This document shows, in pieces, positions 1,622 to 46,564 of a stretch of 64,000 bases of DNA. The position numbers and the translations under genes were made by a program. The DNA lies in NCBI GenBank assembly GCA_039621445.1, contig CP154954.1, positions 19,392,642 to 19,456,641 of the forward strand. Reading direction: 5' to 3'. Under the pieces are notes generated by a model. The model saw only the letters and a program-made list of their open reading frames with translations. It did no database searches and was not told the DNA's origin. The stretch's first letter is position 1, and every line of letters begins with the position of its first letter. The DNA comes from Euglena gracilis. Lineage: Eukaryota.

Positions 1622-1936
1622 GTGTACAACATGTACTCGGTATGTGCTGAGTCAGGGCTGGATAGAGGTAGAGGTAGAGGTCAAAGTCCTCTACCTCTAT
1701 CTGACCCACGTCTACCTCTACCTCTGGGGGGTCGGCACGCCGTGGCGAGGTATCCGGCTGGGGGGGGGGGGGGTTGGCGGGGCGAGGGTGTCCCGGATGG
1801 GGGGGGAGGGGGGCGCGGGGGTTTGCCAAGAAAATTTTCTTTGCGGGCCTGACATGGCGTGGCGAGGGGGTCTAAAAGGGGGGGGGGGTAAAATGGCGTG
1901 GCGAGGGGGTTGGTGAGGGGGGGGGAGGGGTGTGAG

Positions 1937-2249
1937 TGTACGTCTGATTCCCAATTCTCCTTTCCCAATTCCCAAAAGCCTTCGCTTTCGCCTTGGCGCA
2001 CCTACTTGGGAACTGAAAATCAGAGTAACAGAAAACCCTTTTCCCACTTCCCAAGAAGCAAAGCACGGAGCAATGCAGGGAGGACGGACTGGATAACCAA
2101 GTCCCGGTCCGATGGAAAGGAAGGAAAAGGTATAAAGAAGAATACCACCTGTGGAGAGAGAAGGGGCACCCATTAGGAGATCCTAATAGGATCTGCTTCC
2201 ATCCTAACTTCCTCAACGGAAGGGGACAGAAGCATACGCCTGGTACACA
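1937..2249 (-). repeat. 3' LTR (313 bp)
   Basis: Matches 18158-18469 apart from 2 substitutions and one 1-bp indel seen by eye. On the minus strand it begins TGTGTACC and ends CGTACA. Confidence 0.95.
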
Positions 2250-2260
2250 TCCCCGTCCCA
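2250..2260 (-). promoter_or_regulatory. Polypurine tract (PPT)
   Basis: Minus-strand tgggacgggga directly precedes the 3' LTR. Confidence 0.75.
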
Positions 2261-3076
2261 GGGCTATGCCCGATTTCCCCTTTGGACCAGGCATTCTGGC
2301 CACAGGGATTTCGGACACAGACCTGGTCTGTGGGAGGTGCACCCTGGCGCATCCACAGGGGCCCTTTCCGTCGCACAGGGGTCCACTCAAAGGGGGGGGG
2401 GGGGCGAAAAGGAGGGGACCCAAAAGCCCAAAACGCGCAAAATGGTTTCACCTATTTTGCGGTGGCTTATGGGGTATAGTATATTATAGCCCGCTGGGGA
2501 AAATGGGGCTGGCAGGTTTCCTTGCCAAGCAAACCCATCCACCCAGTTTGGGTGTGCCAAAGGCACTTGGGGTTGGTCCATGGGCATTCCAGGAAAACCC
2601 ATGGGGAGGGTGTGGAAGGAGGGGGGGCACCTGACCAGTCAAACCTGGGCAGGGCGCATGGCCAGTCAAACCTGACCACGCAGAAGGAAAGTCCTACTCT
2701 ACAAAACCAACTGCCGGCGACAGCATTTGCCCCGGGGGGAAAGTAGAGAGGAGTGGGGGGTTGGCTTAGGCCAGAAAAGTTGTGCTGTCTGGCAGCCTTA
2801 AGGCCTCAAACGGCCGAAAAGAAAAGAAAGGGAAAGGAAAAGAGGCCGTCGGCCCTGTGCGCTGCGTGTCGCACGCCCGCGAGAGGGGAGAGGGGAGAGG
2901 GGTGTGCATGCATGCGCACGGAATCCTGCACATGGCAGCATCCCGGTGGGAACTTACTAGCGGCGAATACCGCAAAGGGTCTTCGAAGGGGCTGTTCGGG
3001 CGAATACACAAACAGGGTGTCAGGTGAATACCTGACGAGGGTGCTGAAAGACGCCGCATTGGCGCTGACAGACACC

Positions 3077-6000
3077 TCACCTGCCTTTATTGGCTGGACG
3101 TTCGCGGACCTCACGCCAGTAGTCGTGTTGGGGGTCCCCTAATGGGTCCTCAACCAACTCCAGTTGGCGTGGAGAACGCGGTGGAGCCGATTCACTCCGA
3201 ATGGTGTTGAGCTCCGGATCGTTGACATCAAAGGAAGGGGTCTCCCAGTCCTTGATCCAATTATCCGGCAGCTTCTCCCTGGTACGCTCAGCATGATGCT
3301 GAAGATACCGTTGGAGCTGCTCCCAGAAAATTCTGGGCAGCATCACCGGCCAGATGATGTAATTCATCCGGGGGTGATTTGCAGGCACCTGCGGGGGCAT
3401 CCCCGGGGTCTGCTTGAAGTTGATGTCATACATCCACCTCGCTGTCCGAGCTCTTGCGGTATGGGGCCGTAATACAGCCGCCAACCAACCTCTGAAGTCC
3501 ACCAAATCGTGTTCTTCAGGAGGCCACAGTGGCAAGGCGTATCCGCCATGCTGACGCTTGGAGAACAGGGGGTAAACCTGTGTCTCCCAGTCGCCATCAG
3601 TCCAGAGGTAAGGCATTCTTACCTTGGCGTGTTCCTCGACGGCGAGGCGCATTGCCCCAGCGTCGATCTGGCGGTAGCTTTCTACCTTTCGGAAGTCGGA
3701 GTGCTTCAGGAGGCCTTCCACCTGCTTGTACTCCTTCTTCCACTTCTCCAGTGTCTCCCAGTGCTGGGGGACAATGGTGGTGACTGCTCCATCAGCAGTC
3801 TGCACGAACTTGCCTCCTATACAGTTGATGCACAAGGCAGGGATATCCCTGTCGTGAGCATTCTCACTGTAGGAGTAGTTCAAGCTGTGCTTCCAGGCAT
3901 TCAGGCACTCGCCGCATACGAGCGCCACACAGTTCGGCACATATGCCCTGTGATGGAACCAGGAGGATTGCACCTGCCGCTTGCACACATGCACAAGCGG
4001 TTGGTTATGCCGCACATGGTGGCATACGGTGCACGTCCAGGCAAAGGACGTGCCGTGCTGGAAATCCAACACGCAGTCCTCGCCAAAGTACTGTGCCAGT
4101 ACTCTGGGGGAGCGCCTGTTCCAGAATGTCCAGGTATGTTCCGGGACATAGTGGAAAGGTTCTCCGCGGACGAAGAGGGGCTGAATCCATCGATTCAGTG
4201 ACCCTGTCTGGTGCCTAATAGCAGCCAGTTTCTTCGTCCTCTCTTCCACGGTGCCTAGTCTGGTCAGGATATCCTGGGTCCAGAGCTGGGCATCCGCAGA
4301 CACAGGAGGTGAAGCAGGTTCATCCTGCTCCTCATCCGTCGATCCGGCGGAAGACTGGGCCTGTCGACCACGAGTCTTACCTTTCGGTTTGCTCTGGCCG
4401 TACCCGGACGATGCAACGGCCGAATAGTCGTGCATTGTCGTAGGGCCTTTCGCCTGTCCGCCAGTCTGACCTCCAGCGCCACCTTTCGGTGGTGGTTTCC
4501 CATCACCGCCTTTAGAAGGGGGCTTACAGGGTGCAGCACCCGGTTTGCCTCCTTTCGGCTTCGCACTCCCGGAATCAGGAGGTCACGCCTGCGGCTTACT
4601 CCTGGTATCAGGAGCCGATGGTGCCGGAGTAGACGTTTGCCGTCTGGGCGAAGCGGGCATACTGACCGCTGGGTCGCGCATGACGCTCCGAGGGGTCGGC
4701 AAACGTTCCTGGGGTTGTTCAGCCGGCCGTCGCCGAGCAGGTTCATCCTGTCCGACGAGGCGTGGCACTGTGGTCGTCACCGGAATCGGTGCTTCCACAG
4801 GCGCTGGCACTCCCAGAAACTCTGCCATTGTCCTCGGGACGGCAGGGACCCTGCGCGGTGTCGGTGGTCGTGGGGGTATCTCCTCCACTTCCATTTCGAC
4901 ATCCGGTCTAGGAGGTTGATCCTCCACAACCGCTGGCGCAGGTGCTACAGGAGGTTGATCCTCCGCTGTAGCCGGTGCGACAGATAGCTCTGTCGGCTGG
5001 GGTTCATCCCCTGATGGTGGTTGCACTGCTGCCGGAGATGGGGGTGTGGGGGCACCGACATCTGGTGTCTCCACGACCTCGGCGGCGGAGCTTGATGCTA
5101 CGCCTCCACCTCGTGGCGTGAGTGCAGCAGCCACGGCAGTAATGCCAGTGACCACGGCGCCGAGCACACGGCCTCCTAACGAGGTGCGTGCTGTGGGACT
5201 GGCAGGTTCTTCGAGGATATCCTCGACGACCATACCAGTCACCTCGGCTGGAGGCTCAGCCGTCGGGACAGGCGTTGCAGCCACAGGTATATCCCCTGCA
5301 GGTGCTTCGTCTGGCCGAGGCTGTGCCGGAGCATGCAGAGCAGCGTAGAGGATATCCTCCACGTTCTCACCTTCCTCCTCAGGAAGTTCCTGGTCTCCAC
5401 CTACCGGTGGACAGACGGGAGCCGTCGCGGGGGCCGGGGAAACCGATCGTTCCCCTGCCGCTCGCGGGGCTGAGACGAAGGATACAGCCGTTCCTGTCGG
5501 AGACTGCGGCGCTGCCTCCAGTATGGTGACGGAGGGGCTGCGGTCGCGTTCCTCCCGCCGCGGAATCGCAGTGGTGGAAGCGACTGACGCCTCACGTCTC
5601 CTTCGCGCCAGAGGTTCATCCTCTGGGGCGATGAAGGCGCGCAGATCCTCGGGCGAACGAGGATCGTCGGGGTGCCATCGGCATCCCTGGGCATCCGCCA
5701 GCCTTTAAAAGGCCAGCGTACTGCTACTGGCGCTGTTGGGCCAGGGTGGCGGCCATGATGGCTGCACCCAGGCGTTGGCAGGCCTGTTTGGGCCCAGGAA
5801 GCCGCGGTAACGCATGTCTTCCCAGACCTCGAAAAAGCCCTCCTCGAACTCCTGCACGCATGCCAGAATCGGCATACCCAGGTCGAGGATGGCCTTCGGG
5901 TAAGTCATCAGCTGGAGGAATACCTCCCTGTCGAGGGTACCGCCAAACTGTCGCCTCAAATCTTCCTCCAGGTCTATCCCGGCCAGGTGCCAGTTGGGGC

Positions 6001-8572
6001 GCAGGTCGGCGATAACCCGACGACGACGAGGTCCCTCAACGGGGTCGCCGTAGTCTGGTGGCAAGCTTTCCATACCAGGCCTATCGTCCTGGGGGTCACG
6101 GAGATGTATATACACCTCCATGACGTAGGTGGTCCAGGCACGCCACCAGAACTGTTGCAGCATAAAAATACGCTGCTTATGGACGCGGCGACTTTTGCCC
6201 TGGACATCCGGGGCGTCGCGGCACACATGCATAAGCATGCGGCGTCCCATCTCCAGGCCCGGGTTATCCCGAGGCGGTGGAGGACTTCCGCGCACGCCGA
6301 ATCCCCAGAAGTCGACAGGAAATTCCTGCCGGCAATACTTACAACAGAGGTCATACCTCTGTGGGTAGGCCAGGGAAACGCGCTTAACGCGGAAGGTGGA
6401 GCCGTAATGGCTCACCAGCCACACCTGGAGGTTGTTGCACCACAACACCTCGATCAGGCGTTCGATGTCGGGGTTCAGTGGGTAGTATTTCCACTGCACA
6501 CCGAGGGGCCCGACTGTGTGGATACAGTCGAAGATTGCCTTCAGCCTTCGGGCCAACACATGCTGGTCCCGAAATCCTAACTGGTGCAGGTAACTGCGGC
6601 CAGTGGAGTCGCTGAAGAGACCCCAGTTCTGGAAGGGGTATCCCAGCCAAAACCAGAGTTCCCAGAAACCCGGCTGGGTATCCAGCAAGGGTCTGCCACC
6701 TTCACCTTCGAAGGCGTACAGGTCAATTCCGTAATGGAATTGTCTGACTCTGTTCTCGGTGTGGTGTAATACCACCTCGATGACTGCTTCCGGAGGGGTG
6801 ACGGGGCGGTTTCCTGCAACATGGTAATCATGCTGCATTCGCCAGCCTTCGTCCTCCAGCTCCTCCTTGAACCTGAGCATTTGCTCAAAGTCCGAGAGGA
6901 CTTCTGCTGGTTCTTCCTCCTCCTCACGGGCTGTACCCTTACCCTTGCCCTCACCCTTACCTTTGCCGGCCACGCCTTTGCCTTCTCCCTTGCCTTTGCC
7001 CTCAGCCTTACCTTTGTCCTTCCCTGTCTGGCGAATACCAGAGGGTCGGGCGCTCGGTGCGGCAGGAGTCGGTTCGGTACCTTCCCATTCCATCTCTGGG
7101 GAGGGACCTTGCCGTTCCTCTGCACGTCGCGGTGACGGCGTGGCTGGGCGCTGGCTAGGAGCCTGGCGTGGGCTTGGTTTCGGCGTAGGGGGTCGCGACT
7201 CCTTCCATACCGGAGGGATCGGCGGTGGCATTGCGGCAACACGACGGCTCATCGCTGCCTGTGCCACTGCCGGTGGTTGCCCAGCCGGGGTATCCTGGCT
7301 GGCTTCCACCTGCATTGCCGCACCGCCTTCCGCGTCCCGTGGGCTGGGTCGCCTGGGCTGTGGGGTAAGGTTCTCCGTAACCCTATCGCGCTTCAGGGTG
7401 GCAGGTAATCCTGCCGCTCCCGCCGGGGGCTCACCGGGTAATACCGGGGTCGCCACCCGCAGCTGCGGTTGGTACGGATGGTACGGAGTGTATCCACGGC
7501 CCTGAAGGGCGGCCAGCGAGGAGTAATACCTCGCCCGGTGCTCTTCAGACGTGAATACTGGCTCCTGCAGGAAATGCCGAGCAAGCTCATCCTGCTCGGT
7601 TCCCGGAGGTGCCATGTGGTAGTAAGGAACCTCCTGCCGACGCGGGACATCCCCGGGTTGGACAGGAGGTGCACTGGGTGGTCGGGCTGCCGCATGGTGG
7701 GGAGGTTCATCCTCCACCACTATGGGCTCCACCTGCCGCCGTGGCTCAACGCCCGGGACAGGGGCGACCGGTGATGCCTGTGGCATCCAGTGCGTGAACA
7801 TGTGTTGGACGTATGCCTCAGGGGGCACGTCCGACTGTCCGGCTGGGAGTACGCGTGCGCCGCGCGGGTAATCCGCGTGCGTCGCGTACTGCGAGACGAA
7901 TTGCTCTGCTGGCGGCTCGCGCGGCGGCATTCGCTGCGGCGAGGGCGGGCGAGCAAAAATTCTCGTCATCCCAGGTGGGACATGCACAGCCTCACCTACC
8001 GGTGGGGGCGTGTGCTCACGCATATGCACGGTGTGGGATGCCACCGGCGTCTGCGTCTGCAGCATGGGCGGCACATACACGCCCAGGTCCATCATGGTCT
8101 CGCCGGGTTCGAATCCGGAATCGGCTGCGGACGAGAAGTACCGTCTCCCCGTCATCAGGGCTTGACCGCAGGGACACCACTGAGCCACAGGGGTGTTGGC
8201 TACCACCAACAACTGAGCACAGTATGCATCCCAAAGGGCTTGCATAAAGGGCTCCGTTGGGGGGTGTGCGCACATACGCATCGCCCGCTCCAACGTCTCC
8301 GTAGTGCGGAAGATCATCTCTCCCGCATACGGGGGCAGGCGCGATCTGCGCTGCGCTGGTGGCTGAGGTGCCGGCTGCTGGACGGCAGATGGATCTGGTA
8401 CCGCATATGCGGACCGGCTGCTGGTAGCCGCGGCGAATACCGGGGCTGAAACCCTCTCAGCATGTGGGGCACCCGGAATCGGGGCCTCAGCATACTGAGG
8501 GTACTGGGGGTATGGCGCGCCAGAAGGCTGCGGCCATGGTGGACCTGGTCCAGGTCCGCGCCCAGGCAGCAT
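3077..8572 (-). pseudogene. Accessory ORF of the chromovirus (~1830 codons, two in-frame stops); Pro-rich low complexity with Cys/His clusters; function unknown
   Basis: Track ORFs 5705-8746, 4583-5362 and 3077-4435 share one frame. I translated the gaps: they are open apart from TAA at 5705-5707 and TGA at 4583-4585. The likely start is the ATG at 8572 (MLPGRGPG). Confidence 0.75.
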
Positions 8573-8765
8573 GATGCTACCCGAACGACGACAACAACTA
8601 AGGGTAACCTTGTTGTTAGTCGCTTTGAGTGCTGTGGCACTGAAAAAGGAAACTTCTATCTTAATCAAAACTCTGCGAGAAAGATAGAGAAATAATGAAG
8701 TGCAGGGGGGGTATAAACGCGAAACATTCACATAAAACACACACATTCTCCAAAACGAAATCGTT

Positions 8766-10470
8766 TCAGAAAGTGTTTATGTTTATGTCTATGTTATTGC
8801 GCTTGTTCCACAGCTTCCAATCCTGTTGGACATATCCAACAAAACTGGATGCTGGCTCCCAAGTGTCCTCCTCTGGCCCATACCCTTTCCAGCGAACTTT
8901 CCAGTAGTGCACACCCCTGTCGACCTTGTGGTCTATTATCTTATCGACCACAAAGTCGTCCGTTTCAGGTAATCTGGAACGGGGCTTGAAATATAGGCAG
9001 GGGATAGCTTTTCCGTCTGGGGGGCTTAGGTACGGTTTGAAGTCGTCCATATGGACGTCCTCAATCCCGTTGGGCAAGGCAACTTTATATCGCCCGCTAC
9101 TACCTAACCTCTCCAAAATTTCGCATGGGCCGAGCCAAAGAGGATCTAGCTTGGAAGATTGCATGCGGGTGCGGTTATTCCGTACCCACACGCGGTCACC
9201 TGGACTATACACAGGTGTGTTGAAGTTCTGCAAAAACGATTTCCGTTTGTTGGAATGAATTTCTGTGATACGTGATTGGACTGCAGAGCGGAGTGATTCC
9301 ACTTCTGCAAACCACGTTTCACAGCTGACGCTACTTCGGGCGGGTCTCTCCGAGGGGATATCCCCTATGGCCGGAGGGTCTCGTCCGAAAACAATTTTGT
9401 ACGGTGAGTGTGGTAATACCAACCCTGGCAAGGTATTGATGTAAAATAAACACCAATGAAGAACGGATAACCAATTCTTACCCGAGTCAGCCAGTGAAAG
9501 GCGAAGCATATTGACAACGGATTTCACGGCTGCCTCGGCTCTACCATTGCCTTTCGGGCGGTATATAATGGAAAAATGCTGCTCAATGCCGAGTAAACCG
9601 CACAAAGTTGTGAAAAACCGCGAAGAGATCAAGTGATCTTGATCACTCACGATTTCGTTCGGTAAACCCATTAAGCAGATGCATTTCTCCAGGAATATGG
9701 ATGCCAAAATTTGGGCTGTCAACCCTGCTTTCCGGCATGGAATGGCTACTATGTACCCACTCAGCCGACAGACGACAACAAAAACGTAATCGTAAATTTT
9801 GTCATCTGATCCTTTGCAAGGTTCAAGTTCGAGAAAATCCATGCAGAGGGATGTAAAAATGTCAGGTGGTACGGGGAAAAAGTCCATCGTACCAGGGGGG
9901 GTACCTCTGCGCGGTTTCACAGCCTGACAAATTTGGCACCGTTGCGAAATTCGCAAACAGCGCGAATATAAATCTTTTTCACTCAGGGTTGTGCAATATC
10001 TGCGACCCACAAGTGAAAGAAGTTTGGGGGCCCCAGGGTGACCATGGCTGTGATAGCTCAAAATCACATCATCAACCAGGTCTTGGGGTATACAATATTT
10101 ATAACCAGAATCATTCCGGAAAATAAGCCGCAATGGTGATAGAGAGTAATTCTCTATGGATTCACCATTACGAAGTCTATTCACAATGGTACTATATATA
10201 GGGTCACGCGAATAATCCCATTCGCGGAAAAATAGGGGGGTAGGAGTTTCCGTACGCGTAATGCGACGGGGTCCGGCAGTGCGTCCACGCCGGCGCCTTC
10301 CACGCAATGGTGAAATGGCGATGCTGCGATACACCCGGGAAACCGGTAGTGAATCGAGCATGTTGTCCGCAGCGTCGGATCGACGTGCGAACTGGTCAGC
10401 CTCATGGCTGCCATGAAAAGTCGCATCACCCTCATCCGGGTTCCCAGGATAATACCAGGGGGCTCGGCTG
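8766..10470 (-). CDS. pol: Integrase with C-terminal chromodomain (pol, frameshifted from RNase H)
   Basis: HHCC (HSHGHPG...CQICQ), DDE core (CMDFL, IVSDQD, NGRAE), GPY/F-like WLGPCEI, and chromodomain [10 protein letters not shown]...[17 protein letters not shown]. Removing 2 bp in the ctctctc tract near 10470 gives ADPLSR and joins it to RNase H. Confidence 0.93.
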
Positions 10471-11700
10471 AGAGAGGATCCGCAACTTTTTGCGTATGAC
10501 CTGGGGTATAAACTACCACCAGGTTAAACTGGCTCAAGAACTCATGCCATCGGCATCTTCTGCCAACTGATGACATGGCCTTGTTCAGGTCCTCGGTATA
10601 CCAGTGTTGAAGGCTCTCATGATCCGTCAACACTAGTATCTGGACCAAGCTGCTGGCTATCCAGCTGCGGAACTTCTGGAGAATTAGCACAATGGCATAT
10701 GTCTCCTTTTCGCGAATGCTCCATTTAACCTGTCCTTTCCCGTTGTCGCCCTGTAGCTTCCTGCTAAAGAAAGCCACAGGTCGGAGTTCATTCGCCGCAT
10801 TATGCTGGCTAAGAACCCCGCCAACAGCGTAATCGCTGCTGTCGACCTCCAGGACATACGGTTTGTATGGATCCGCGATATCGAGAACCACGTTCTCGAG
10901 GAGCAAGTCCTTGATTTTATTCAAGGCCTCGCGCATTTGGTCATCCCAAATGACTTTTGCGTTATCGGGTGTCCGATTTTTGAGTTGTCGGGTTAGGGGT
11001 ACCGCGATTTTCGCGAAATCTTTCATGTAAATCGCGTAGTATTGGGCTAATCCCAAAAATCCCTTTAAATGCGTTAAGGTCTTAATGACCTCAGGAGTCC
11101 ATTTCTTAATGGCCTCCATCTTACTGGGTGCGGCTTTACGCTGCCCGTTGCTCAGGATGTGTCCGCAAAACTTAATAATTTTGCGAAACAGGTGCATTTT
11201 GGAACCCTTCACAAAAAGCACATGCTTTTGGAACGCGGATAATACCGCGCGCACATCGCGATAATGCGGGTCGAGGATATCCTCGCCCGATTTCGCGGAT
11301 GGCGGTTGGGGTCCCACCAGTACATCATCGATGTACACCAGAGCAAACGGTAAATCGCGCAAAACCCACTGGATCATGCGTTGAAACATGGCTGGGCCAT
11401 TCTTAACACCCATGGGGAGTACCGTCCATTGGTACACACCCTTGGATGTCACGAATGCCGTGTACGGTTGCGAATCAGGATGCAAATGCATCTGATGGAA
11501 ACCGTCTTCCAGATCAAAGATTGACCACAACCGGTTATCCGATTGTTTGGTGATCAAATCCTCGATCAGCGGTAACGGGAAGGGGTCATCCTTCGTTTGG
11601 GAGTTCAGGTACCGGTAATCCAGCACCAGTCTCCACTTCTTCTGACCAGACTGGTCAGCGGGTTTGGGCACCACTCGCTCTTGATGTCCACTCGCTCTTG
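10470..11700 (-). CDS. pol: Reverse transcriptase + RNase H (pol)
   Basis: [32 protein letters not shown]; RNase [27 protein letters not shown]. Confidence 0.95.
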
Positions 11701-13892
11701 GAGGGGATAATCCACTTCCGCTGGATGAGCTTCTCAATCATCTCGTTGAGAGCCTGTTCGCGTTCACCCGAGCAACGGAAGAATTTCCGGTGCATAGGTT
11801 TAGCGCCATCCTTGAGCTCGATTTTGCAAACACCGAACGGACCGCGAATCGCGGGGTCGATGTCGCAGGCGTAAACTGGATTATCCAGTACACCATGAAA
11901 TTCGCGAGTAATTCGCGAACAATAGTCAGCGGACTTGGGGTGTTGGTCCGCACTCTCAATGACCGCAGAAATCTGCGTTGAGGGTGTGGCATCCCCATTG
12001 GTACCAAGGTATCTTGGCACACGCAAATCGGATATTCCGAATGCGTCAAAGAAACAAACGCGAAAAATGATTTCTTTAACAGGTGGTAATAATATACCAC
12101 AAAAATCCTCAAATAGTGGTACATCAGCGGGTAAATCCCACCAATGAAAACACACATGGGAAAGTTCGTGAAACCAATCCGCATTCGGATTGACGTGTAT
12201 GAGGAGAGCTCCTCGCGCTTCATCGCGGAGGATTTTCTCCACCACATCCGGGATAAGTTTTGGGGGAGGGTGCATCCATAGCACCGTATCACCCCAGAAT
12301 TTAAGAAATGCGTTGGTATGTCGCGACCAATATCGCGACAAGCGCGCATGCGCTTTTGATGAAAACGCATCAATTTCCAACGGCAAATCGAAGGAATCAG
12401 CCAAAACCGCGATTTTGGAGAACCATTCCTCCAAAATACGGTATTGACCAAAGTTAAATGCATTCCAGACACGCATCGCGTATGTGTCGACCTGATTCGC
12501 GGGTTGAAGAGCGGTAACGCAATTCAAGGATCCGCAAACATAGGTCAAGGGTGTGTCATCCACACTCCCAAGGGGCATTCCCAAGGGTTGATGGGTTGGA
12601 TGGGTACATACCCATTCCATATCATGCCAGATGGAGGTGGGGGAGGTGTGTGACACGGATTTCGCGGTCCCAAACAACAAGGCAATACCTCGTTGTTGGA
12701 GCACTTGATGTACGGTCGCGCATTGCGATCCGCAACCAAGTGTATGGTTACGCGAAATCGGGATTAGTGTTGGTGTTTGGACTAGACATCCACAATCGAA
12801 ATCTGGCTGGGCGGAAATTCTCCTACAGTGCACACATTGGAAGGAAGTGTCGGAGTAGTGGTCCTGGTCGCGCATGTTGTTCTGGTGGGGGTGTGTGTAA
12901 AAGTTGGGATGCGCTTTTGAAGCTGCTGGGGGGTGTACAGATGTATCTGAAAGCGATACATCTGGTGGAAAACGGGGTATTGGTTCAGCTGGGCGACTAC
13001 TCGACACCGTGATCACTTCAGGCCTTTGGGCTTTCGTCTTGTAACCCAGTGGAACGAGGGGGGTACCGCTACTCGCTTGCCCTGCCTCATGGGGAACGGA
13101 AGTTGGTGTGTCAATGGGCAGGGGGTGAACTTTCTCGGTACACCCGGTGTGGAAAACGTTGGTTGGTGTGGTTGGTAACGGGGTAAAAGTTTTCGAAAAC
13201 GGTGTGGAAAAATTGGTGGCTATCGCGGTTGACGCCACAGGTGATGAAGGTTTGGGGGGCAATGAGGAGAGCGGTGATGTGCGCAAACCGTGGGAGTGGC
13301 AATCCACTACCCGCCGGTGCTGACGTAAAAAGGGGTATCCCAGCTTTACGTCAGAACCATGGATTCCGGATTCATATCCCCAGGTATCCGGAAAATTTTG
13401 CGGTTGGGGGGGGTGTGAGTGGTGCTTGGGGATGAGGGGTAGGCCTATGTCCAAAAAGCATCCCAAGTCACCACCGCACATGGGGGTGTTGTCAGCCGTC
13501 GTAATTTTGATCGGCTTCTTGGCTTTCACCAAGAGGGGGGTTGGTATCAACCCGAACCGAAAAAGTAGTGCAATGCGACAACCAGTGTCAATGAGAATTT
13601 TGACTTTTGTACAAAAATTTTGGATTTTGATTTCCGCTTGGACCAAAAGTTCCATGGGGGGTAAGCAAAGTGAAGGGTCTGGCGAAAATACGTTTTCTTG
13701 CCAGCTTTCCCATGAACCCTTTCCTACTTTGCACAACATTCCGAGCGGAAAGTTGGAGTGGGGGGTGGGGGACCCGAAAATTTTCCGGGTACCGACCAGG
13801 AAGGCAGATGGGCAGGGGGGGCAGGGTTGATCAGGTCCTACCTCCATCTGTTCATCAGCCCAGAGGTCCGTGCCCTCGGACCTCGGGCTCCC
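11655..13892 (-). CDS. pol: Aspartic protease - spacer - N6-adenine MTase-like domain - RT N-terminus (pol)
   Basis: ILIDTGC protease motif with LGYPFL; IDAFSS...FWGDTVLWMHPPP MTase-like block; KIELKDGAKP...[10 protein letters not shown] start. The frameshift coincides with a 13-bp direct repeat at 11671-11683 / 11688-11700. Confidence 0.85.
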   Translation of the reverse strand, partial: GSPRSEGTDLWADEQMEVGPDQPCPPCPSAFLVGTRKIFGSPTPHSNFPLGMLCKVGKGSWESWQENVFSPDPSLCLPPMELLVQAEIKIQNFCTKVKILIDTGCRIALLFRFGLIPTPLLVKAKKPIKITTADNTPMCGGDLGCFLDIGLPLIPKHHSHPPQPQNFPDTWGYESGIHGSDVKLGYPFLRQHRRVVDCHSHGLRTSPLSSLPPKPSSPVASTAIATNFSTPFSKTFTPLPTTPTNVFHTGCTEKVHPLPIDTPTSVPHEAGQASSGTPLVPLGYKTKAQRPEVITVSSSRPAEPIPRFPPDVSLSDTSVHPPAASKAHPNFYTHPHQNNMRDQDHYSDTSFQCVHCRRISAQPDFDCGCLVQTPTLIPISRNHTLGCGSQCATVHQVLQQRGIALLFGTAKSVSHTSPTSIWHDMEWVCTHPTHQPLGMPLGSVDDTPLTYVCGSLNCVTALQPANQVDTYAMRVWNAFNFGQYRILEEWFSKIAVLADSFDLPLEIDAFSSKAHARLSRYWSRHTNAFLKFWGDTVLWMHPPPKLIPDVVEKILRDEARGALLIHVNPNADWFHELSHVCFHWWDLPADVPLFEDFCGILLPPVKEIIFRVCFFDAFGISDLRVPRYLGTNGDATPSTQISAVIESADQHPKSADYCSRITREFHGVLDNPVYACDIDPAIRGPFGVCKIELKDGAKPMHRKFFRCSGEREQALNEMIEKLIQRKWIIPSKSEWTSRASGAQTR

Positions 13893-16800
13893 CTACTCCA
13901 GGTCCGAACCGGCCGAATAGCCGGCTATGGGCCTTTTAGAGGTATAAACGGATTTCAACGTGCGCACCGCCATGCGGGCCTCGTCGAAATCGGTATCCGT
14001 GGTCTCATCCCCCTCCCTGCCCGAAGCCGGGGTGTCATCCTCCAAACAAGATATCTTGAAACCGACTTTATGGCGGTTGGAGGAGTGACCCTTGTCACCG
14101 CGATTCATACCGCGATGACGTTGGCCAGGGCGGGGAGAACGAGAACGCGGACATTTGGATGAGTGGTGATCACTCGATCCACAAAGCGAACACCGAGATT
14201 TGTGTCGCGATTCTTGGTAACGGGGGGATCGGTTTCCCGATTTCCCGTCAAACCGTCGTGGTGACCGGATATCCCGTCGACCATGACCGGTGTATCGGGG
14301 TTTTCCCGATGACGATCGCGAAGAAGATGATCCGCTTCGCGAACGCGATCGCGATGTCTCGCGATGAGAATCTCGCTTCTTGGCCGGGGCACCGGGTGAC
14401 CTACCCCGAGGGGTACCGTGTTTCCGCTCATCGCGGAACGGGATCCGGGGGCTAATACCACCGGAACGGGGACCCGATGACCGTGAATTGCCCGATTGGC
14501 GTGAAAACGCGGAGGAACCCGAACCTCGTGATGAGGTCGAGCCTCGCGGACTCTGAATACGCTTTCGCGCTTCAGGATTAGGACATTCCCGAGACATATG
14601 TCCCGATTTGTTGCACAAAAAGCACACTTTATCTGTGGCTTGGTCCGAAGAACGCGGGTATCGCGTTTTCGATCCCGTGGTGGGTGAAGTAGGTGAAACC
14701 GGTTATTTTTGCAATGTGTTTACCGAACCAGCCGGTAATCCAGCGGTTGGGTGTGCGGTATACGCGGATTGAATCTGACCAAGAAGCTGTGATAGCTTCA
14801 ATTGCTTGGAAACGTAGTTCCAGCGTTGGTCAAGAGTCATTGCATTACCCGCCAACTCCTCACGATGGATATCCTTGATGAGGCTAGGCGTGAAATGCAT
14901 GAGAACAGCGTCAAACTGTTCGCGCATTTGCTTTTCACTGAGTTCATCCACTTCAGCGGCAAGTCCTAACCATTTGGCATACCAAAGGTCAATGGACTTC
15001 CATTTGCGATCGGGTGGGGCGCATTGCCGCCACTTGGTCTCCAGGGTAATCCTAGCGACCAAACTTGAACTGGTGGAAGCGTATTGCTCCACCAGGTCAT
15101 CAAAGGAAACGCGGTAGCGAATGACGAGTTGTCGCGCGCGCTCCTTCTCATCCCTAGGGAGGCAATCGATGAATTCCATCTTGATCACCTCCGGGTTTGT
15201 GTCCTGGGTTGGCCCTTTCAATGCCCAGTAATACTCCCAGTCCCGGAAAAACTGTCTCCATGTGGTTGGATCACCGTTCCATTGGGGTTTCACCTTATTC
15301 GCGATTGCGATGGTGCCCTTGAAGTCTTTCTGAAAAACCCGTTGGCCCTCGGTGGTATTCCGTGGATTCGGGCCCGGGTACGCTCGAGCACCAAGCGTAT
15401 CCTTTCCGGATTCTTGTCGGAATCGCGAAATTTCTGGTGAAGGTGAATCCTGGTACCGGAAATCCGGTCGCAAACCCTGTTGGTCACCCGTAATAGGGGG
15501 ACACTCCGGTGTGGGGGTATGTCGCGCATGCAACATGTGACCCACTCCCGGTGTACGGGTTTGGCTCATTCCACGCACAAGCATGGAATGATGGATTTCT
15601 TGGTGGAGACTTGGCGGAATCGCCGTGTTTTCCGCGAATTCGGTTCCCGTAATGGGAAATTCATCCGAAAACTGGTTTTGAGTTGTAGGCAAGGCCAATG
15701 GTGGCACAATTCGCGGAATCGCGGATTGTGACACTCGGGACACGGGTGGTGGTGGTGCATGTGCACCCAGATTCGGGTTGTGGAAACGCGAATCTGGAGC
15801 ATCTGGCGCATCTTCGGCAATGCATACTGCCGAATTGCGGTGTGAAACCCGCTGTTGGTTGGACACATTATCCAAACCCACAGACAAGTCATGCACACTT
15901 TGCTCCAAATGCTCAACGAGTTGGAGTTGGCCGCAAATACGGTCAACTTCATCCTCCAAAGCGCGAATACGCTTGCGGTAACGGGAAAAGTCATCCAAGT
16001 GCGGAATCCTTTCGGAAATTCCGGTAACATCTTGGACAAGTTTCCCGTGAGACTTATCCAATAATTGGAGTTGTCCCATTAATGCTTTTACAGCATTTGA
16101 GAGAATCTGCAAAGGTGATGTCACCTTGGTTGGTGTGGTGGTGGGTGCAACCGGTGCAGGGTTATCCGACAACACGGTTGTGGTACCCATGGGCAAATTT
16201 CCAGGTTGTGGGTTATCCAACAACGCGGAAATTCGCTCATCCAACCTGGTAATCTCACTTTGCGTGGATCGGGCATTCCGATTCACCGATTCCTCAAGCC
16301 GTAATAGGCTGTTGCAGAAATCTTGCAAGGTTTCCTGATTGTTAGTGAGCATTTTGTCATAAAATGCCTTGAAATCAGGGTTCTCGGTAATCCGAGAACT
16401 GGAACCTGCAGGTAGAGACTGCATTTCCGTTACTTTGGTAGACACCGATGCATACCGGGTCTGGAGTTCCCCAATAGCAGTCTGAATACCGCTAATGTCC
16501 GGAACTCGGTGGGAAAGTGCGGAATAGCTTTGTTGCAAACCCGCAATGGCCGAGTTAATCCCGCCAATGTCGGATTGCAACTGCAACTGCAGGGAATCCT
16601 GCCGTTGTGCCATTTCCGCGACTTTCGCGCTCAGATTGGATAATCCAACCCGATTCGCGTCACAATAGCAGGTTTTCTGCTCCAAACGGGAAAGTCGCTC
16701 CTCCAACTGCCGCACATACGTGTGGGGAGCAAAATTCTCGTTGGCTTGTGACTGGAATTGCCGAAACTTTTCCGTTTCATCGCACAACTGCATAATGCGG

Positions 16801-17871
16801 TGTTGCGATTCATGGAAAGTTGCGGACAATGTGGTGAAAATGGTCCATAGACACAAATCCACCACTGCTGGATGTTGCAGACGAGGAATCTCGTGCATGC
16901 AACTGTTGTTGCAAATGCAACAACGCGGATGAACAGGACTCCATTTGTCCCGATAACTGTTGTAGTGAGCCATGCAAGTGCAGAAACTTGGAGTCATTCC
17001 GCGTTTCCGCTTCATGCATGCATTCACTAATTTGCCGGAAGTTTTGCGGGAGCTGTTGGCATATTCTGTCAAAGGTTTCCCGAAAGTTTGCAAGGTCAAT
17101 ACCCGCACTTTCGAAATTCCTCTGGCAATATCTGCCAACTTCCTGCAAGTAATTCCAGCAGTGTTCCAGCTTGGTGAAGACATGTTTCTGGTTGTCCTCA
17201 TCAAACTGAAGCACTTTGTTCAATGCGGTTGCACACTCTGCAACGCATTGTTGCACATGGTTGAACTGCCTCACAAGGGGGTGATCCCCTGGAAGCCGAG
17301 CAACAATATCCTGCACATCCTCAGCAGTGAGGAGCTCACCAGTGCCCTTCCCATAGTCATCCATGGGTTGGGATGTACCGGAGAATTCCGGCACCACGAG
17401 GCGAGTCTCCGGTTGCCAAGGTAGTGCGGGATAGCACCCGATATCGGGGGGTGGTGGCAAAGCTCTGTAAGGGCTTGCCGGTGGAAGAACGGGTGGTGGT
17501 TGAAAGAAACACGGGGTTTCTAGCCCACCATCACCAGAGAAGCCCGGTGGCGGAATCACCACGGGTCTCTCCGGTGTGTGCAGCTGCACCATTGCCGCAG
17601 ACAGAGGCGAATACCCCCGTTGTGGCAAGGTGAGTGCGGAAGAGGCCGCATTAGCCTCTGAAGCCAATGATGTGGAGGGCTCATCGCCGACCACTGTCAA
17701 TGATGACAAGTGTTGCAATCTTGACAATTGAGCCAATTGTGCCTCATCGGCGTGGGAACTGGAAGCACTTTCACATAAAAGCTTCCAATCCCCAGTTTCT
17801 TTGTCAATGTCTTGCAATGATGCCTGTAATAAGGCATAGTTGAATTGATGGTTGGGGCCTGTGCTTTGCAT
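13893..17871 (-). pseudogene. gag: Long gag: coiled-coil N-terminus, capsid-like region, two CCHC zinc knuckles
   Basis: ATG at 17871; 1-bp frameshift in a T4 run near 16840; capsid-like WNGDPTTWRQFFRDWE; in-frame TAA at 14703; knuckles CFLCNKSGHMSREC and CSLCGSSDHHSSKC. The TAG at 13893 is in frame with pol. Confidence 0.85.
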
Positions 17872-18128
17872 CTTTCTGGTGACAAAAACAGCAAAAACCC
17901 ACAAAACTAAGCAGTTGTGCTGGCACCAGAGGGGCTGTAACGGGTAATACCGTACAGAGCCTTCCGGAGCCTGCTCGTCTGCTTAGACGTTGACTAGAAG
18001 CCGGGAGCTGACGCTGCGACCGTGTAATAACGGTGCAGGGGCTCTCCGCTGCCAGTCAGCGTAGGATCGAACCAATCTGCTACCAAGTGTAATACTTGAT
18101 AGCGTTTCTCTCTGTATGGGCTGTATGT

Positions 18129-18155
18129 GTAGGATCGTGACCTAATCTGCTACCA
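18129..18155 (-). promoter_or_regulatory. Primer-binding site complementary to the initiator tRNA-Met 3' end
   Basis: Minus-strand tggtagcaga starts 2 nt after the 5' LTR. The plus strand reads gtaggATCGtgacctaatctgctaCCA, like the T-arm and acceptor end of eukaryotic tRNAi-Met. Confidence 0.75.
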
Positions 18156-18157
18156 AG

Positions 18158-18469
18158 TGTACGTCTGATTCCCAACTCTCCTTTCCCAATTCCCAAAAGC
18201 CTTTGCTTTCGCCTTGGCGCACCTACTTGGGAACTGAAAATCAGAGTAACAGAAAACCCTTTTCCCACTTCCCAAGAAGCAAAGCACGGAGCAATGCAGG
18301 GAGGACGGACTGGATAACCAAGTCCGGTCCGATGGAAAGGAAGGAAAAGGTATAAAGAAGAATACCACCTGTGGAGAGAGAAGGGGCACCCATTAGGAGA
18401 TCCTAATAGGATCTGCTTCCATCCTAACTTCCTCAACGGAAGGGGACAGAAGCATACGCCTGGTACACA
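18158..18469 (-). repeat. 5' LTR (312 bp)
   Basis: Direct repeat of 1937-2249, followed by the PBS on the minus strand. Confidence 0.95.
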
Positions 18470-18484
18470 GTGTGCCGACCCCCC

Positions 18485-24100: not shown

Positions 24101-24375
24101 CCCGTTTTTTTTTCCTTCGAGTTATGGTTGGAAATCTCAGCTGCCCCCCCCCCCCCCCTGGGTTTTTTTTCCCAACCCTGGGTTTTTTTTTTCGGAATTG
24201 CGGTTGGACATTTTTGCTGCCCCCCCCCCGTTTTTTTCCAGAATCACGGTTGGAAATTTTGGCTGCCCCCCCCGTTTTTTTCCAGAATCACGGTTGGAAA
24301 TTTTGGCTGCCACCCCCTCCCCGGTTTTTTTTAGGATTACGGTTGGAAATTTGGGCTGCCCCCCCCCGGTTTTTT
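21110..24375. repeat. Degenerate minisatellite, core ttagaattacggttggaaattttggctg(c)n(t)n
   Basis: Dozens of tandem copies with variable C and T homopolymers. Interrupted by a small palindromic insert at about 22490-22680. Confidence 0.9.
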
Positions 24376-27300: not shown

Positions 27301-27617
27301 ATTCCGATGTCTTGGAAATCGACCGACCTTTTGTTTCCTTTTTTGAATGCCTTTTTGTTCCGTTTTTGGACATTGTAAGTTTCAGCCTGAAATACGTTAA
27401 TGTCCACCAACCTTTTGTCTCTCTTTTTTCGGAATGCTTTTTCTTCCATTTTGAAAGAAACAATCTCTATATCAAGAACTGTGTCTCAAACGCAGACTCT
27501 GACCTCAGTCTGCGTTTCGAAACACAGAAACAGATTCAGCTCAGCGTTTCGGAACACAGACTCAGGTCAGAGTCTGCGTTTTTTTAGAAACACAGATTTC
27601 GACCAAAGCCATGTTGC
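24372..27617. repeat. Tandem array, ~2.5 copies of a 1277/1276-bp unit with hairpins and 32-bp internal repeats
   Basis: tatacaaaaatcgaccgacac begins at 24376, 25653 and 26929. Units are nearly identical; the third is truncated after gaccaaagccatgttgc. Confidence 0.95.
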
Positions 27618-34244: not shown

Positions 34245-34641
34245 TGTTTAAAACGAAGTCAAAAAAAACACGTTTTTTTTTAAAAAAAACATGTTTTTTT
34301 TTAAACAAAAACAAAAAAAACGCCATTGAGGGTCCAGGGCGAAAATTTTTTTTGCCTTTAACTTTAGCTTTTTTTTGCCCATCCTCAGGCAGAGAAAGAC
34401 ACCAAATTTGGGATGTTTCAAGTTGAAACATCCCAAAATGGCAGAAAAATGCCCTATTTTAACCATTCTTGTTGAAGACCTCCAAAAGTATTGGTTTTCA
34501 AGTCATTTGAGCTAAGATTGGTTCACCCTTGCGATCAAAGGCAAAATTTGGACCATCATTTTCCCCTTTGTTTTTTTTCCGTTTTTTTGCCTGCTTTTTT
34601 TAATAAAAAAAAAACGTTTTTTTAAAAAAAAGCCAGCTATG
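34245..34641. mobile_element. Left-truncated copy of the catagctggc hAT-like MITE
   Basis: Near-identical to 36425-36735; right TIR gccagctatg at 34632-34641. Confidence 0.75.
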
Positions 34642-36409: not shown

Positions 36410-36839
36410 CATAGCTGGCACTTCGTTTAAAACGAAGTCAAAAAAACACGTTTTTTTAAAAAAAAACATGTTTTTTTTTAAAAAAAAACAAAAAAAACGC
36501 CATTGAGGGTCCAGGGCAAAATTTTTTTTTGCCTTTAATTTTAGCTTTTTTGCCCATCCTCGGTCAGAGAAAGACACCAAATTTGGGATGTTTCAAGTTG
36601 AAACATCCCAAAATGGCAGAAAAATGCCCTATTTTGACCATTCTTGTTGAAGACAACCAAAAGTATTGGTTTTCAAGTCATTTGAGCTAAGATTGGTTCA
36701 CCCTTGCGATCAAAGGCAAAATTTGGACCATCACAAACACACCCCTTTTTTTCTCTTTTGTGTCTTTTTTTTTTCTTTTTTTTTATACCTCTTCTTTTTT
36801 TTTCTTTTAACCACCCCCCCCCACCTCCCCCCCCCCGGG

Positions 36840-36881
<42 letters not shown>

Positions 36882-46539: not shown

Positions 46540-46564
46540 GAAGAAAAGTCACATGAATTAGGAC

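Follow-up and report, generated by a model that had tools for sequence, protein, structure and literature searches.

A Dam-type methyltransferase-fold domain with an altered catalytic motif in the Pol polyprotein of a Euglena gracilis chromovirus

Retrotransposons with their own chromatin tools show mobile DNA adapting to host epigenomes. The locus described here lies in a 64,000-nucleotide stretch of Euglena gracilis DNA, which we call the window, and it raises the question of what an adenine-methyltransferase-like domain may do in the pol of a chromovirus when its catalytic tetrad reads HPPP. The original prediction placed such a domain between protease and reverse transcriptase (RT), allowed that this copy or family might be inactive or only bind DNA, and proposed that a chromodomain reader and a DNA-mark writer in one polyprotein could couple integration targeting with epigenetic marking. 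Our best explanation, to which as a whole we give a probability of roughly 0.6, is that the window holds a chromovirus whose Pol contains a Dam-type domain that may have a non-canonical role.

A complete chromovirus with two frame breaks

We found a complete LTR retrotransposon of 16.5 kb at 1935-18469 of the window, of the Ty3/gypsy chromovirus type and on the minus strand, as are all the features given below. It encodes, one after another, gag/CCHC, protease, Cys motif, Dam-like domain, RT, RNase H, integrase and chromodomain. A direct repeat forms the LTR pair, with a 5' LTR of 314 nt (18156..18469) and a 3' LTR of 315 nt (1935..2249) that are 2 substitutions and one 1-nt indel apart (~99% identical). 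The same five letters lie beyond both LTRs, at 18470..18474 on the 5' side of the element and at 1930..1934 on its 3' side, giving a 5-bp target-site duplication. A primer-binding-site-like string that starts with TGG adjoins the 5' LTR from 18155 downward, and a polypurine-tract-like string (2251..2260) stands immediately upstream of the 3' LTR, both being read from the sequence. The Pfam matches follow the order RVT_1, RT_RNaseH, Integrase_H2C2, rve, SH3_Tf2-1 and Chromo, which is the RT - RNase H - integrase - C-terminal chromodomain arrangement of a chromovirus. The element is a complete, recent Ty3/gypsy chromovirus insertion, and its family is very highly repeated, with 49,774 contig pieces from a single run aligning to it.

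The 5' part begins with an open frame of 390 codons (16810..17982) for which the profile scan gave no family match, followed by a gag-like frame of 838 codons (14703..17219) with Pfam matches of coiled-coil type and an in-frame TAA at its end. Next comes a nucleocapsid-like frame (13893..14702) with an in-frame TAG at the gag/pol boundary, in which Pfam zf-CCHC (E 1.1e-6) detects two CCHC zinc knuckles, at about 14577-14627 and 14148-14198. A putative aspartic protease follows at 13293..13640. We call it from its position, from the D-T-G at 13581-13589 (residues D102-T103-G104), which is invariant in all 10 aligned relatives, and from a non-significant Peptidase_A3 match (E 0.059), the only Pfam match in this stretch; an AF2 model of the protease built on a 10-sequence alignment was unusable (pLDDT 35). 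Between the protease and the Dam-like domain lies a Cys motif, CxxC...DCGC (12786..12836), that matches no Pfam family. Across the alignment of relatives its D366 never varies and C353, C356 and C367 hardly do, and the motif is 81% identical to the relative P0152, compared with 27-49% for the neighbouring spacers.

Downstream of the Dam-like domain, RT (about 11153-11668, RVT_1 E 1.4e-26) and RNase H (about 10526-10948, RT_RNaseH_2 E 2.9e-25) share a frame of their own at 10526..11668. The integrase and C-terminal chromodomain occupy the frame at 8766..10523, with the H2C2 part at about 9909-10091 (Integrase_H2C2 E 4.6e-7), the integrase core at about 9555-9848 (rve E 5.2e-8), the integrase SH3 part at about 9045-9200 (SH3_Tf2-1 E 6.9e-7) and the chromodomain at about 8844-8954 (Chromo E 4.3e-10). 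The predicted placement of the methyltransferase-like domain was thus borne out, RT, RNase H, integrase and chromodomain being identified downstream by Pfam and the protease upstream by its D-T-G. A Pro-rich 3' accessory chain of 1023, 373 and 501 codons in one frame, with TAA and TGA between them, extends over 3077..8776; a Pfam scan placed this chain in no known family, and an ESM Atlas search with its part at 5708-7000 gave no usable match. An Rfam scan of the whole 64-kb window was likewise without a match.

Two frame breaks, one on each side of RT-RNase H, make the window copy defective; this region is 87% identical to P0152 by tblastn. Frame switches in the tblastn of the uninterrupted P0152 locate the first break, from the Dam/pre-RT frame into the RT frame, at 11670..11700, where a 12-nt string is present twice, 5 nt apart; contigs from other runs are 2 letters longer at this site or read differently. 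The same comparison, together with the sequence, locates the second break, where reading returns from the RNase H frame to that of the integrase, within a CT run at 10460..10511; contigs without the 2 letters at 10470 were found in all four runs compared. As assembled, the window copy cannot make an intact Pol. Long frames that run on past in-frame stops could also point to an alternative genetic code, and we rejected this reading because a reassigned codon would turn up far more often than these four stops (TAA, TAG, TAA and TGA) do. A rough estimate finds so few nonsense changes compatible with the LTR divergence, and the TAG stands at the usual gag/pol boundary.

Identity, fold and conservation of the Dam-like domain

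The peptide on which the original prediction was based is an exact in-frame reading of the minus strand, within a stop-to-stop frame of 745 codons at 11655-13892 (P0001). The string LEIDAFSS...WMHPPPKLIPDVVEKILRDEARGALLIHVNPNADWFHEL spans about 12160-12378, with motif I (EIDAFSS) at about 12355-12378, the motif IV position (LWMHPPP) at 12261-12281 and the CAC codon of His541 at 12270-12272. Judging from the spans of the matches, the conserved domain covers about 12027-12488 (P0001 residues 469-622, about 155 residues); the predicted interval of 12050..12450 was rightly placed, although the domain is somewhat larger.

A phmmer search against 1.84 billion representatives returned 321 proteins at E<=1e-3, 80 of them at <=1e-10 and 10 at <=1e-30. 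In one-protein searches Pfam Dam (PF05869) matched the whole ORF with E 2.5e-4 (21.2 bits) and the domain alone with E 2.1e-5 (24.7 bits). Both scores fall short of the PF05869 gathering score of 28.1 bits, which is exceeded by relatives including P0017 (37.9) and P0026 (39.7). Pfam Dam also recognizes 36 of the 42 aligned relatives (E<=0.01). NCBIfam phage_N6A_met matched the domain with E 0.05. Sequence comparison thus puts the similarity of the domain far beyond chance, on the 321 phmmer matches and the Pfam Dam matches together. Solved structures searched by sequence yielded no credible match (chance level only, E>1, with the single sequence, and none with the profile). In the ESM Atlas the nearest clusters are unnamed eukaryotic proteins, and 7 of the 30 matches to the domain belong to clusters in which part of the members have Pfam Dam (11% in the cluster displayed).

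An AF2 model of the domain was of high confidence (pLDDT 92.4, pTM 0.85) and has a class I (Rossmann-like) methyltransferase fold, its top structural matches all being SAM-dependent methyltransferases. In the model the His follows the strand at 74-77 and motif I follows the strand at 44-46; in class I methyltransferases motifs IV and I sit at these strand positions. Motif I has the acidic and small residues expected after strand 1 (D-A-F-S-S), with D508, F510 and S512 invariant in 10 of 10 relatives, and is a putative SAM-binding-type motif in the predicted fold. With the weak Pfam Dam match and this fold, both a profile and a structural resemblance to methyltransferases are in hand. We consider it close to certain that the domain is homologous to DIRS/phage Dam (PF05869-type) N6-adenine methyltransferases, as had been predicted, and that the element is of the DAM-LTR kind discussed below.

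Compared with phage Dam proteins (PF05869 / TIGR01712), the window's domain aligns with profile positions 21-105 of 169, shares the class I fold and agrees with them in where motifs I and IV lie. It differs in scoring under the curated cut-offs (24.7 vs 28.1 bits and 13.1 vs 97 bits), in having His for the catalytic Asn and no aromatic residue after Pro-Pro, and in its setting inside a retroelement polyprotein. DIRS1-type elements have the same domain family and the D-x-F-A/S-S ... W ... NPP motifs in common with it, and a protein of RT-RNase H-Dam order (P0131) is among the matches. In those elements, however, Dam comes after RNase H, whereas here it lies upstream of RT, and the window element has a DDE integrase, chromodomain, LTRs and target duplication in place of a tyrosine recombinase. 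The rve match, and no recombinase match in any scanned frame, place it outside the DIRS1-like elements.

The structural comparison also brings up a different substrate. The best Foldseek match of the model is PCIF1 (6irw_B, E 3.2e-3, TMq 0.57), and PCIF1 likewise leads in VIA-align (Z 10.8, rmsd 2.6, 127 aligned residues), followed by PH1948 (10.1), METTL5 (8.8), KsgA (8.7), T4 Dam (8.2), M.TaqI (8.1) and EcoDam (7.8). The domain could accordingly be an RNA adenosine methyltransferase, either like PCIF1/CAPAM, which makes cap-adjacent m6Am, or like METTL5/KsgA, with RNA of the element, and not DNA, as its substrate. The RNA N6-adenosine enzymes do stand above the DNA enzymes in this ranking, Pfam PCIF1_WW matches the DIRS-order P0131 (E 2.3e-5) and one of the 42 aligned relatives (E 7.2e-3), and an RNA substrate would account for the negative DNA assay of Dam proteins described below. 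Against this, the differences in Z are within the range of a tie, and many class I methyltransferases tie at Z 8-11, so the fold alone leaves the substrate unfixed; among the 42 relatives, sequence profiles favour phage Dam in 36 and PCIF1_WW in one, and the eroded tetrad speaks against any adenine-N6 chemistry. The likeness to PCIF1/CAPAM (6irw, 6irx; a cap-specific adenosine-N6 methyltransferase) is one of predicted fold, at 10-13% sequence identity; the window's domain has no PCIF1_WW match, lacks the helical and WW parts of PCIF1 and reads HPPP where PCIF1 has its NPPF tetrad. We regard the RNA methyltransferase reading as improbable.

Returning to the Dam-type identity, we gauged constraint on the domain by protein identity per segment and by the differences listed among contigs. 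The domain is 72% identical to P0152 with 0 gaps, compared with 49%, 27% (47 gap columns) and 45% for the spacers, and 10 relatives of 24-42% overall identity all have the same residue at about 20 positions of the domain part. Among copies, the best-supported 15 of the differences listed inside the domain comprise 9 synonymous and 6 nonsynonymous changes, a count that mixes selection in active lineages with neutral decay. By these sequence comparisons the domain is under stronger conservation than its flanking spacers. It also recurs in the same context: P0152 has Dam-RT-RH-IN in a single ORF, P0154 (1677 aa) has Dam-RT-RH-IN-Chromo in a single ORF, Pfam Dam lies upstream of RVT_1 in six more matches, and the protease, Cys motif, Dam and pre-RT parts are common to all 10 aligned relatives. 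No relative turned up in metagenome contigs, which were scanned once by protein and once by alignment with P0152.

These observations bear on whether the domain is a decaying, functionless remnant, a mere spacer between protease and RT, or an artefact produced by nesting of a DIRS fragment inside a gypsy element. Decay would fit the eroded catalytic motif, the frame breaks and a change private to the window copy at a nearly invariant Pro. A spacer would not be expected to keep 72% identity without gaps across diverged elements when the adjoining true spacers fall to 27-49% with many gaps, nor to hold about 20 invariant positions and give a confident AF2 model. Nesting is ruled out because independent, uninterrupted single ORFs of up to 1677 residues have the same order. 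The remnant reading is disfavoured, and we give it only a very small chance.

Relation to published DAM-LTR elements

The kind of element is already known. A class of LTR elements with Dam domains, DAM-LTR, chromodomain elements included, was first described in a May 2026 preprint (Fernandez-Moreno et al., bioRxiv 10.64898/2026.05.21.726589), which names five lineages: Chlorophyta chromovirus-like, Chloro-Ochrophyta, Ichthyosporea, Pyropia and Euglena. The present family is a further member. The premise that Ty3/gypsy pol normally has no such domain holds in general, but Ty3/gypsy elements bearing both Dam and chromodomains had thus been published. The window element and the chromodomain-bearing DAM-LTR elements alike are strongly amplified LTR elements of the Ty3/gypsy type in which Pol includes a DIRS-type Dam domain and the integrase bears a chromodomain, and the idea of a chromatin reader joined to an adenine-methylation module applies to both. 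They differ at the tetrad: the preprint gives Asn-Pro-Pro as conserved in 'almost all' of the DAMs that it sampled, whereas in this lineage there is His, or the aromatic residue or second Pro is lost. No DNMT (cytosine methyltransferase) match was found in any scanned frame of the element, which is therefore not an 'EpiLTR'.

The DAM screen of the preprint used hmmsearch at E<=1e-5. Pfam Dam E-values are 2e-5 to 2.5e-4 for the window and from 1.8e-5 to no match for its closest relatives, values that vary with database size and with a profile that may differ from that of the survey. Since they lie at or beyond the threshold that the preprint gives, this lineage may have been under-sampled there.

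The altered catalytic motif and possible roles of the domain

The motif IV tetrad of amino-methyltransferases, [D/N/S]-P-P-[Y/F/W], is replaced by HPPP in the window, as the original prediction had read it, and both key positions are altered, with neither Asn, Asp or Ser nor an aromatic residue. The nearest relatives read HPPL, HPMF, NPHY or NPP[I/L/V/H]. At the Asn column, 139 related segments have N in 94, H in 26, C in 13, F in 3 and Y, A and L in one each, and the canonical tetrad [N/D]PP[F/Y/W] is kept in 58 of the 139 and in 4 of the 20 closest, in a sample that is biased to relatives of a His-bearing query and may contain decayed copies. In a tree of 95 segments Asn is ancestral and the column has changed about 10 times; one clade there (support 0.925) consists of 10 His-bearing representatives that are <50% identical. 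Of the two options first offered, a peculiarity of this copy or of its family, the former falls away: P0152, P0007 and P0036 have His too, making it a sub-lineage trait. The D-A-F-S/A-S motif I and structural Trp, Lys and Gly positions are invariant despite the eroded tetrad. A limited literature search found nothing on point about His at motif IV, and His at the catalytic Asn position may still support catalysis.

If it does, the domain would still be active as an adenine-N6 methyltransferase, with DNA or an RNA:DNA hybrid as substrate, and His would take over from Asn the hydrogen bond to the target amino group; 6mA would be put on new cDNA before integration, so that host AMT1 could maintain a permissive state. 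The 2026 preprint proposes this model and also advances the 'reader plus writer' idea; in essence the model is the writer of the original prediction. The conserved fold and motif I agree with it, as does constraint that persists after the change from Asn to His: the window and P0152, 72% identical and gapless, both have His, and the lineages of the His clade have persisted and diversified. In three species, two ichthyosporeans and Euglena gracilis, DAM-LTR copies carry more 6mA according to the preprint, a result in favour of a genuine tie to adenine methylation; raised DAM-LTR expression is reported for the two ichthyosporeans only (bioRxiv 10.64898/2026.05.21.726589). The same preprint, however, found that DIRS, DAM-LTR and adintovirus Dam proteins gave no rise in 6mA in dam-deficient E. 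coli, and no member is known to be active; the change of both key tetrad positions, at which the nearest relatives vary freely, also counts against an active enzyme. The eroded motif and the negative E. coli methylation assay leave the reader-plus-writer idea weakened, and we judge an active writer unlikely, though well above the RNA reading in our estimation.

We put a non-canonical or non-catalytic role of the domain at slightly short of an even chance. In such a course the domain would be synthesized within Gag-Pol, the protease would release or expose it, and it would be carried in the particle next to the nucleic acid under reverse transcription. Canonical DNA adenine-N6 methyltransferase action would most likely have been lost in the His-bearing lineage, and the domain would more probably be kept as a module that binds SAM and/or nucleic acid, or as an enzyme of altered chemistry or substrate. 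It could then influence how new copies meet the adenine-methylation chromatin of the host.

A more specific version is tentative, and we rate its chances as low as those of an active writer. Here a captured Dam-type methyltransferase, with His for the catalytic Asn and its aromatic lid gone but motif I and the fold retained, would now be a constrained non-canonical module that binds or reads adenine or 6mA, senses SAM, or recruits host AMT1 instead of writing, in a lineage diverged far enough to lie under the detection threshold of the only published survey, and the two retroelement classes of the window would be 'writer' and 'ex-writer' versions. If true, one genome would hold both versions of Dam in different retroelement classes. 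The window offers a complete Dam-carrying chromovirus with its full anatomy, dated by its LTRs. That the tetrad is often lost while the domain stays constrained is not stressed in the published description, and an eroded but constrained domain bears on the question left by the negative assay there, namely methylation or binding.

One metatranscriptome run contains 42% of the sampled words, and a contig of 981 nt from it spans the domain with 37 differences; because an RNA library may contain DNA, we draw no conclusion on expression from such contigs. A second, LINE-like element in the window has a Dam domain with a canonical NPPF tetrad between 2A-like peptides, an arrangement suggesting that the domain is intended to work as a separate, free protein.

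A retained methyltransferase-fold module in chromovirus Pol

Pol of the Euglena chromovirus encodes a retained, conserved methyltransferase-fold module between protease and reverse transcriptase (RT). The original prediction had read an adenine-methyltransferase-like domain at 12050-12450; the peptide it quoted is present in frame on the minus strand, inside a 745-codon stop-to-stop frame (P0001, 11655-13892), and the proposed interval falls inside a conserved domain, but the domain is larger, about 12027-12488 judging by the spans of database matches. Its Dam-like character is supported by a Pfam match, by relatives and by an AlphaFold2 fold. Pfam Dam (PF05869) matches the whole ORF at E 2.5e-4 and the domain alone at 2.1e-5 (21.2 and 24.7 bits, both below the gathering score of 28.1), and NCBIfam phage_N6A_met gives E 0.05. 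Across 1.84 billion representatives, a complete HMMER search found 321 relatives of the domain with E<=1e-3, of which 80 reach <=1e-10 and 10 reach <=1e-30. When the domain was aligned with 41 hand-chosen shorter matches, 36 of the 42 members had a Pfam Dam match with E<=0.01 (lowest E 2.6e-12).

The AlphaFold2 model built from this 42-member alignment is confident (pLDDT 92.4, pTM 0.85). Foldseek against the PDB placed the cap-specific adenosine methyltransferase PCIF1 first (E 3.2e-3, TMq 0.57) and KsgA/DIMT1 next, and in an independent structure search over 48,161 chains the matches included PCIF1 (Z 10.8), PH1948 (10.1), METTL5 (8.8), KsgA (8.7), T4 Dam (8.2), M.BseCI and M.TaqI (8.1) and EcoDam (7.8). 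All of these are class I SAM-dependent methyltransferases, most of which target an exocyclic amino group of adenine. By sequence, a single-sequence search of solved structures yielded chance-level rows only and a profile search none. In the model, D-A-F-S-S follows strand 44-46 and H-P-P-P follows strand 74-77, which are the motif I and motif IV positions of class I methyltransferases. Judged from the model, the methyltransferase fold is established; the predicted fold does not fix the substrate, because many methyltransferases score equally at such Z values, and an RNA-directed enzyme is an improbable reading of the domain.

The element is a large chromovirus of 16,535 bp on the minus strand (1935-18469). 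Its LTRs, at 18156-18469 and 1935-2249, form a 314/315-nt direct repeat whose two copies are two substitutions and one 1-nt indel apart; an identical five-letter target-site duplication lies on either side, a TGG-initiated string directly follows the 5' LTR and a purine run directly precedes the 3' LTR. From the 5' end, open reading frames and profile scans give an unassigned frame of 390 codons, a gag-like coiled-coil frame, two CCHC knuckles (Pfam zf-CCHC E 1.1e-6), an in-frame TAG at the gag/pol boundary, the P0001 frame with D-T-G, Cys motif and Dam-like domain, RT and RNase H (RVT_1 E 1.4e-26, RT_RNaseH_2 E 2.9e-25), an integrase with chromodomain (Chromo E 4.3e-10) and a further open frame that matches no family. 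Profile searches of the scanned frames of the element detected no cytosine methyltransferase.

The last frame (3077-8776, minus strand, about 5.7 kb) is an accessory gene that makes up much of the element's unusual size. It comprises about 1,900 codons in one frame, split by an in-frame TAA and TGA into 1023, 373 and 501, and its product has a Pro-rich N-terminal and a Trp/Cys-rich C-terminal part; Pfam gave no match to it, and an Atlas search of the part 5708-7000 gave no usable match. The gag region (14703-17982, minus strand) is also unusually long, the 390-codon frame overlapping an 838-codon coiled-coil frame in another frame. The sole Pfam match above threshold for the latter, NPV_P10 (E 1.9e-7; 31.9 versus 29.8 bits), is probably a coiled-coil resemblance.

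The window copy is young but not intact. Compared with P0152, an uninterrupted database protein, its frame shifts at about 11680 and returns at about 10490, which leaves RT-RNase H in a separate frame. A 12-nt string that occurs twice 5 nt apart marks the first break, and a CT run the second. In all four public sequencing runs there are contigs two letters shorter at the second break, 16 of them in X1 (about 30% of depth), while in X15, X16 and X17 the shorter form is the only contig across the site. At the first break, X15 and X16 have contigs two letters longer, and in X1 14 contigs stop fitting and continue with other letters. The window copy also has private changes: His566, at a nearly invariant Pro, and Glu576, a position that nearly every other contig reads differently. 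Otherwise continuous frames are cut by four in-frame stops (TAA, TAG, TAA, TGA). The TAG is at the usual gag/pol boundary, and by a rough estimate the others are what neutral decay would leave, given the LTR divergence. Other copies of the family appear to be in frame.

Conservation and relatives of the domain

Related elements retain the domain. P0152 (1208 aa), the closest database protein, reads on without a break from spacer to integrase, with Dam, RT and RNase H in between, and in P0154 (1677 aa) a single ORF spans Dam, RT, RNase H, integrase and chromodomain, with a C-terminus that visibly resembles the window's. In an alignment of the P0001 frame with nine relatives of similar layout, all ten share an invariant D-T-G, CxxC...DCGC, a variable spacer, the Dam-like domain and a conserved entry into RT. 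Among 25 longer matches scanned, Pfam Dam lies upstream of RVT_1 in six, and in a seventh (P0020) a phmmer match lies upstream of RT-RH-IN. Other arrangements also occur: in three scanned matches with copia order (the polyproteins P0123, P0129 and P0149) the domain lies between integrase and RVT_2 or directly before RVT_2, and P0131 has the DIRS order RT-RNase H-domain.

Against P0152, segment comparison gave identities of 49% for the first spacer, 81% for the Cys motif, 27% with 47 gap columns for the second spacer, 72% with no gaps for the Dam-like domain, 45% for the linker and 91% for the pre-RT segment, and tblastn gave 87% for RT-RNase H and 77% for integrase. By these identities the domain is much better kept than the neighbouring spacers. 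The family is very large: when the four runs were aligned to 9600-14000, one alone gave 49,774 contig pieces. Of the 40 best-supported single-letter differences (239 more exist), 23 lie in the P0001 frame, 15 synonymous and 8 non-synonymous, with 9 and 6 inside the domain; this synonymous excess, from a small, truncated sample that mixes selection and decay, agrees with purifying selection without proving it. That the domain has no function at all is very improbable.

The Cys motif CxxC...DCGC (12786-12836, minus strand), between protease and Dam-like domain, is nearly invariant in the ten aligned relatives, and the spacer around it is free to vary. No Pfam family matches the motif, which may be a zinc-binding element accompanying the Dam-like domain. 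In four of the nine relatives (P0003, P0004, P0005 and P0153) the predicted protein starts at a Met right before a conserved G-x-D-x-W-A string; at that position (13860-13895, minus strand) the window has Glu, five codons past the TAG that ends the CCHC frame. Pol may be expressed from its own start, by readthrough or otherwise.

The altered catalytic motif and proposed function

The HPPP that the original prediction reported in place of NPPF is real (His codon CAC, 12270-12272), and its His is common to the nearest relatives P0152 (HPPL), P0007 (HPPP) and P0036 (HPPP). We put 152 matched segments of the 150 best matches in register, a sample centred on a His-bearing query in which some matches may be decayed copies, and could read the catalytic Asn column in 139: N 94, H 26, C 13, F 3, and Y, A and L one each. 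Of the 139, 58 preserve the complete tetrad [N/D/S]PP[F/Y/W], 20 have NPP followed by a non-aromatic residue, and 45 lack N/D/S. The complete tetrad occurs in 4 of the 20 closest matches, 14 of the next 39 and 40 of the remaining 80. The ten-protein alignment has HPPP, NPPI, NPHY, NPPL, NPPV (twice), HPMF (twice), NPPH and NPPF. From the query and the 152 segments, those with fewer than 90 aligned residues or gapped at the column were dropped, leaving 95 for a FastTree tree. It places Asn at the root with about ten changes of state. His forms one clade of 10 representatives (support 0.925) and also appears at several single tips, and nine Cys-bearing tips cluster, their largest pure clade having 4 (support 0.971). 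This spread of His and the repeated changes show that the pocket has been remodelled repeatedly while fold and motif I persist, and that His is neither a private lesion of the window copy nor unique to its family.

In characterised enzymes, both altered residues contact the target adenine. By what retroelement biology suggests, the domain would be translated within Gag-Pol and packaged, and the protease would free or expose it beside the template and new cDNA. We favour, at a probability of roughly 0.45, the reading that binding of SAM and/or nucleic acid, or an altered chemistry, is what keeps the domain in place. Somewhat doubtful is a still active adenine-N6 enzyme that marks reverse-transcription intermediates. 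It is the model of a preprint (bioRxiv 10.64898/2026.05.21.726589), which proposes that 6mA is put on these intermediates and kept by host AMT1, leading to permissive chromatin, and that the chromodomain steers integration; this is the same idea as the reader-plus-writer function of the original prediction, a proposal already in print. However, both target-adenine-contact residues are altered in the present lineage, and an assay in dam-deficient E. coli, reported in the same preprint, was negative for all DIRS, DAM-LTR and adintovirus proteins tried. The authors also state that nearly all DAMs in their sample conserve Asn-Pro-Pro, and the words "histidine" and "inactive" are absent from the preprint's main text.

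Within the literature searched, Dam domains in non-DIRS LTR elements are described only in this preprint (bioRxiv 10.64898/2026.05.21.726589), which counts 30.9% of its Dam-carrying elements as chromodomain LTR elements and names five lineages; the kind of element is therefore already known and the family here is a further member. The Chlamydomonas v6 and Ectocarpus transposable-element papers, in the parts available, mention nothing beyond the DIRS domain or, in DNA transposons, other methyltransferases. The screening threshold of the preprint was E<=1e-5; in single-protein scans the window copy and its closest relatives range from 1.8e-5 to no match against Pfam Dam, and because these scores sit at or beyond 1e-5 divergent members may be under-counted, E-values not being comparable across database sizes. 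Our additions are the full anatomy of one dated copy, evidence that changes of the tetrad extend across the lineage and recur in a domain that remains constrained, and, elsewhere in the window, a second, apparently LINE-like element that combines a Dam domain with 2A-like peptides.

The second Dam-carrying element and other repeats

This second, different retroelement occupies 36842-40702 (minus strand). In its frame 38135-40702 (P0155), Pfam Dam scores 31.3 bits (E 2e-7), which exceeds the gathering threshold; the tetrad is the canonical NPPF, and identity to the chromovirus domain is 38% over 76 residues. CxxC...HxxxC strings lie upstream of the Dam domain here too. A 2A-type motif stands on each side of the domain (...DVECTPGP at 39632-39655 and ...EVEENPGP at 38690-38713), and the six frames of the window contain no others; such motifs act by ribosome skipping, which gives co-translational release. 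An RT frame lies downstream (36945-38423, RVT_1 E 6.4e-13); among solved structures R2 non-LTR elements are nearest to it (E 3e-3). Next on the minus strand comes an A-rich stretch ending with a run of about 40 A at 36842-36880. From its sequence the element looks LINE-like and would free its Dam domain co-translationally.

Satellite-like arrays lie at 21183-24400 and 24555-27575. In one, a unit of about 47-70 nt, with C/G/T homopolymer runs around a ...AGAATTACGGTTGGAAATTTTGGCTGCC... core, recurs about 43 or more times; the other consists of 32-nt tandem arrays inside a repeat of about 1.28 kb, with 300-nt blocks 99% identical at 24372/25649 and 26000/27276. Two further direct repeat pairs, one at 43114-43798 and 45862-46563 (about 690 nt, 98-100% identity, 2.76 kb apart) and one at 34263-34558 and 36440-36733 (about 300 nt, 91-97% identity, 2.18 kb apart), the latter just beyond the LINE-like A-rich tail, may be LTRs of small or non-autonomous elements, or segmental duplications.
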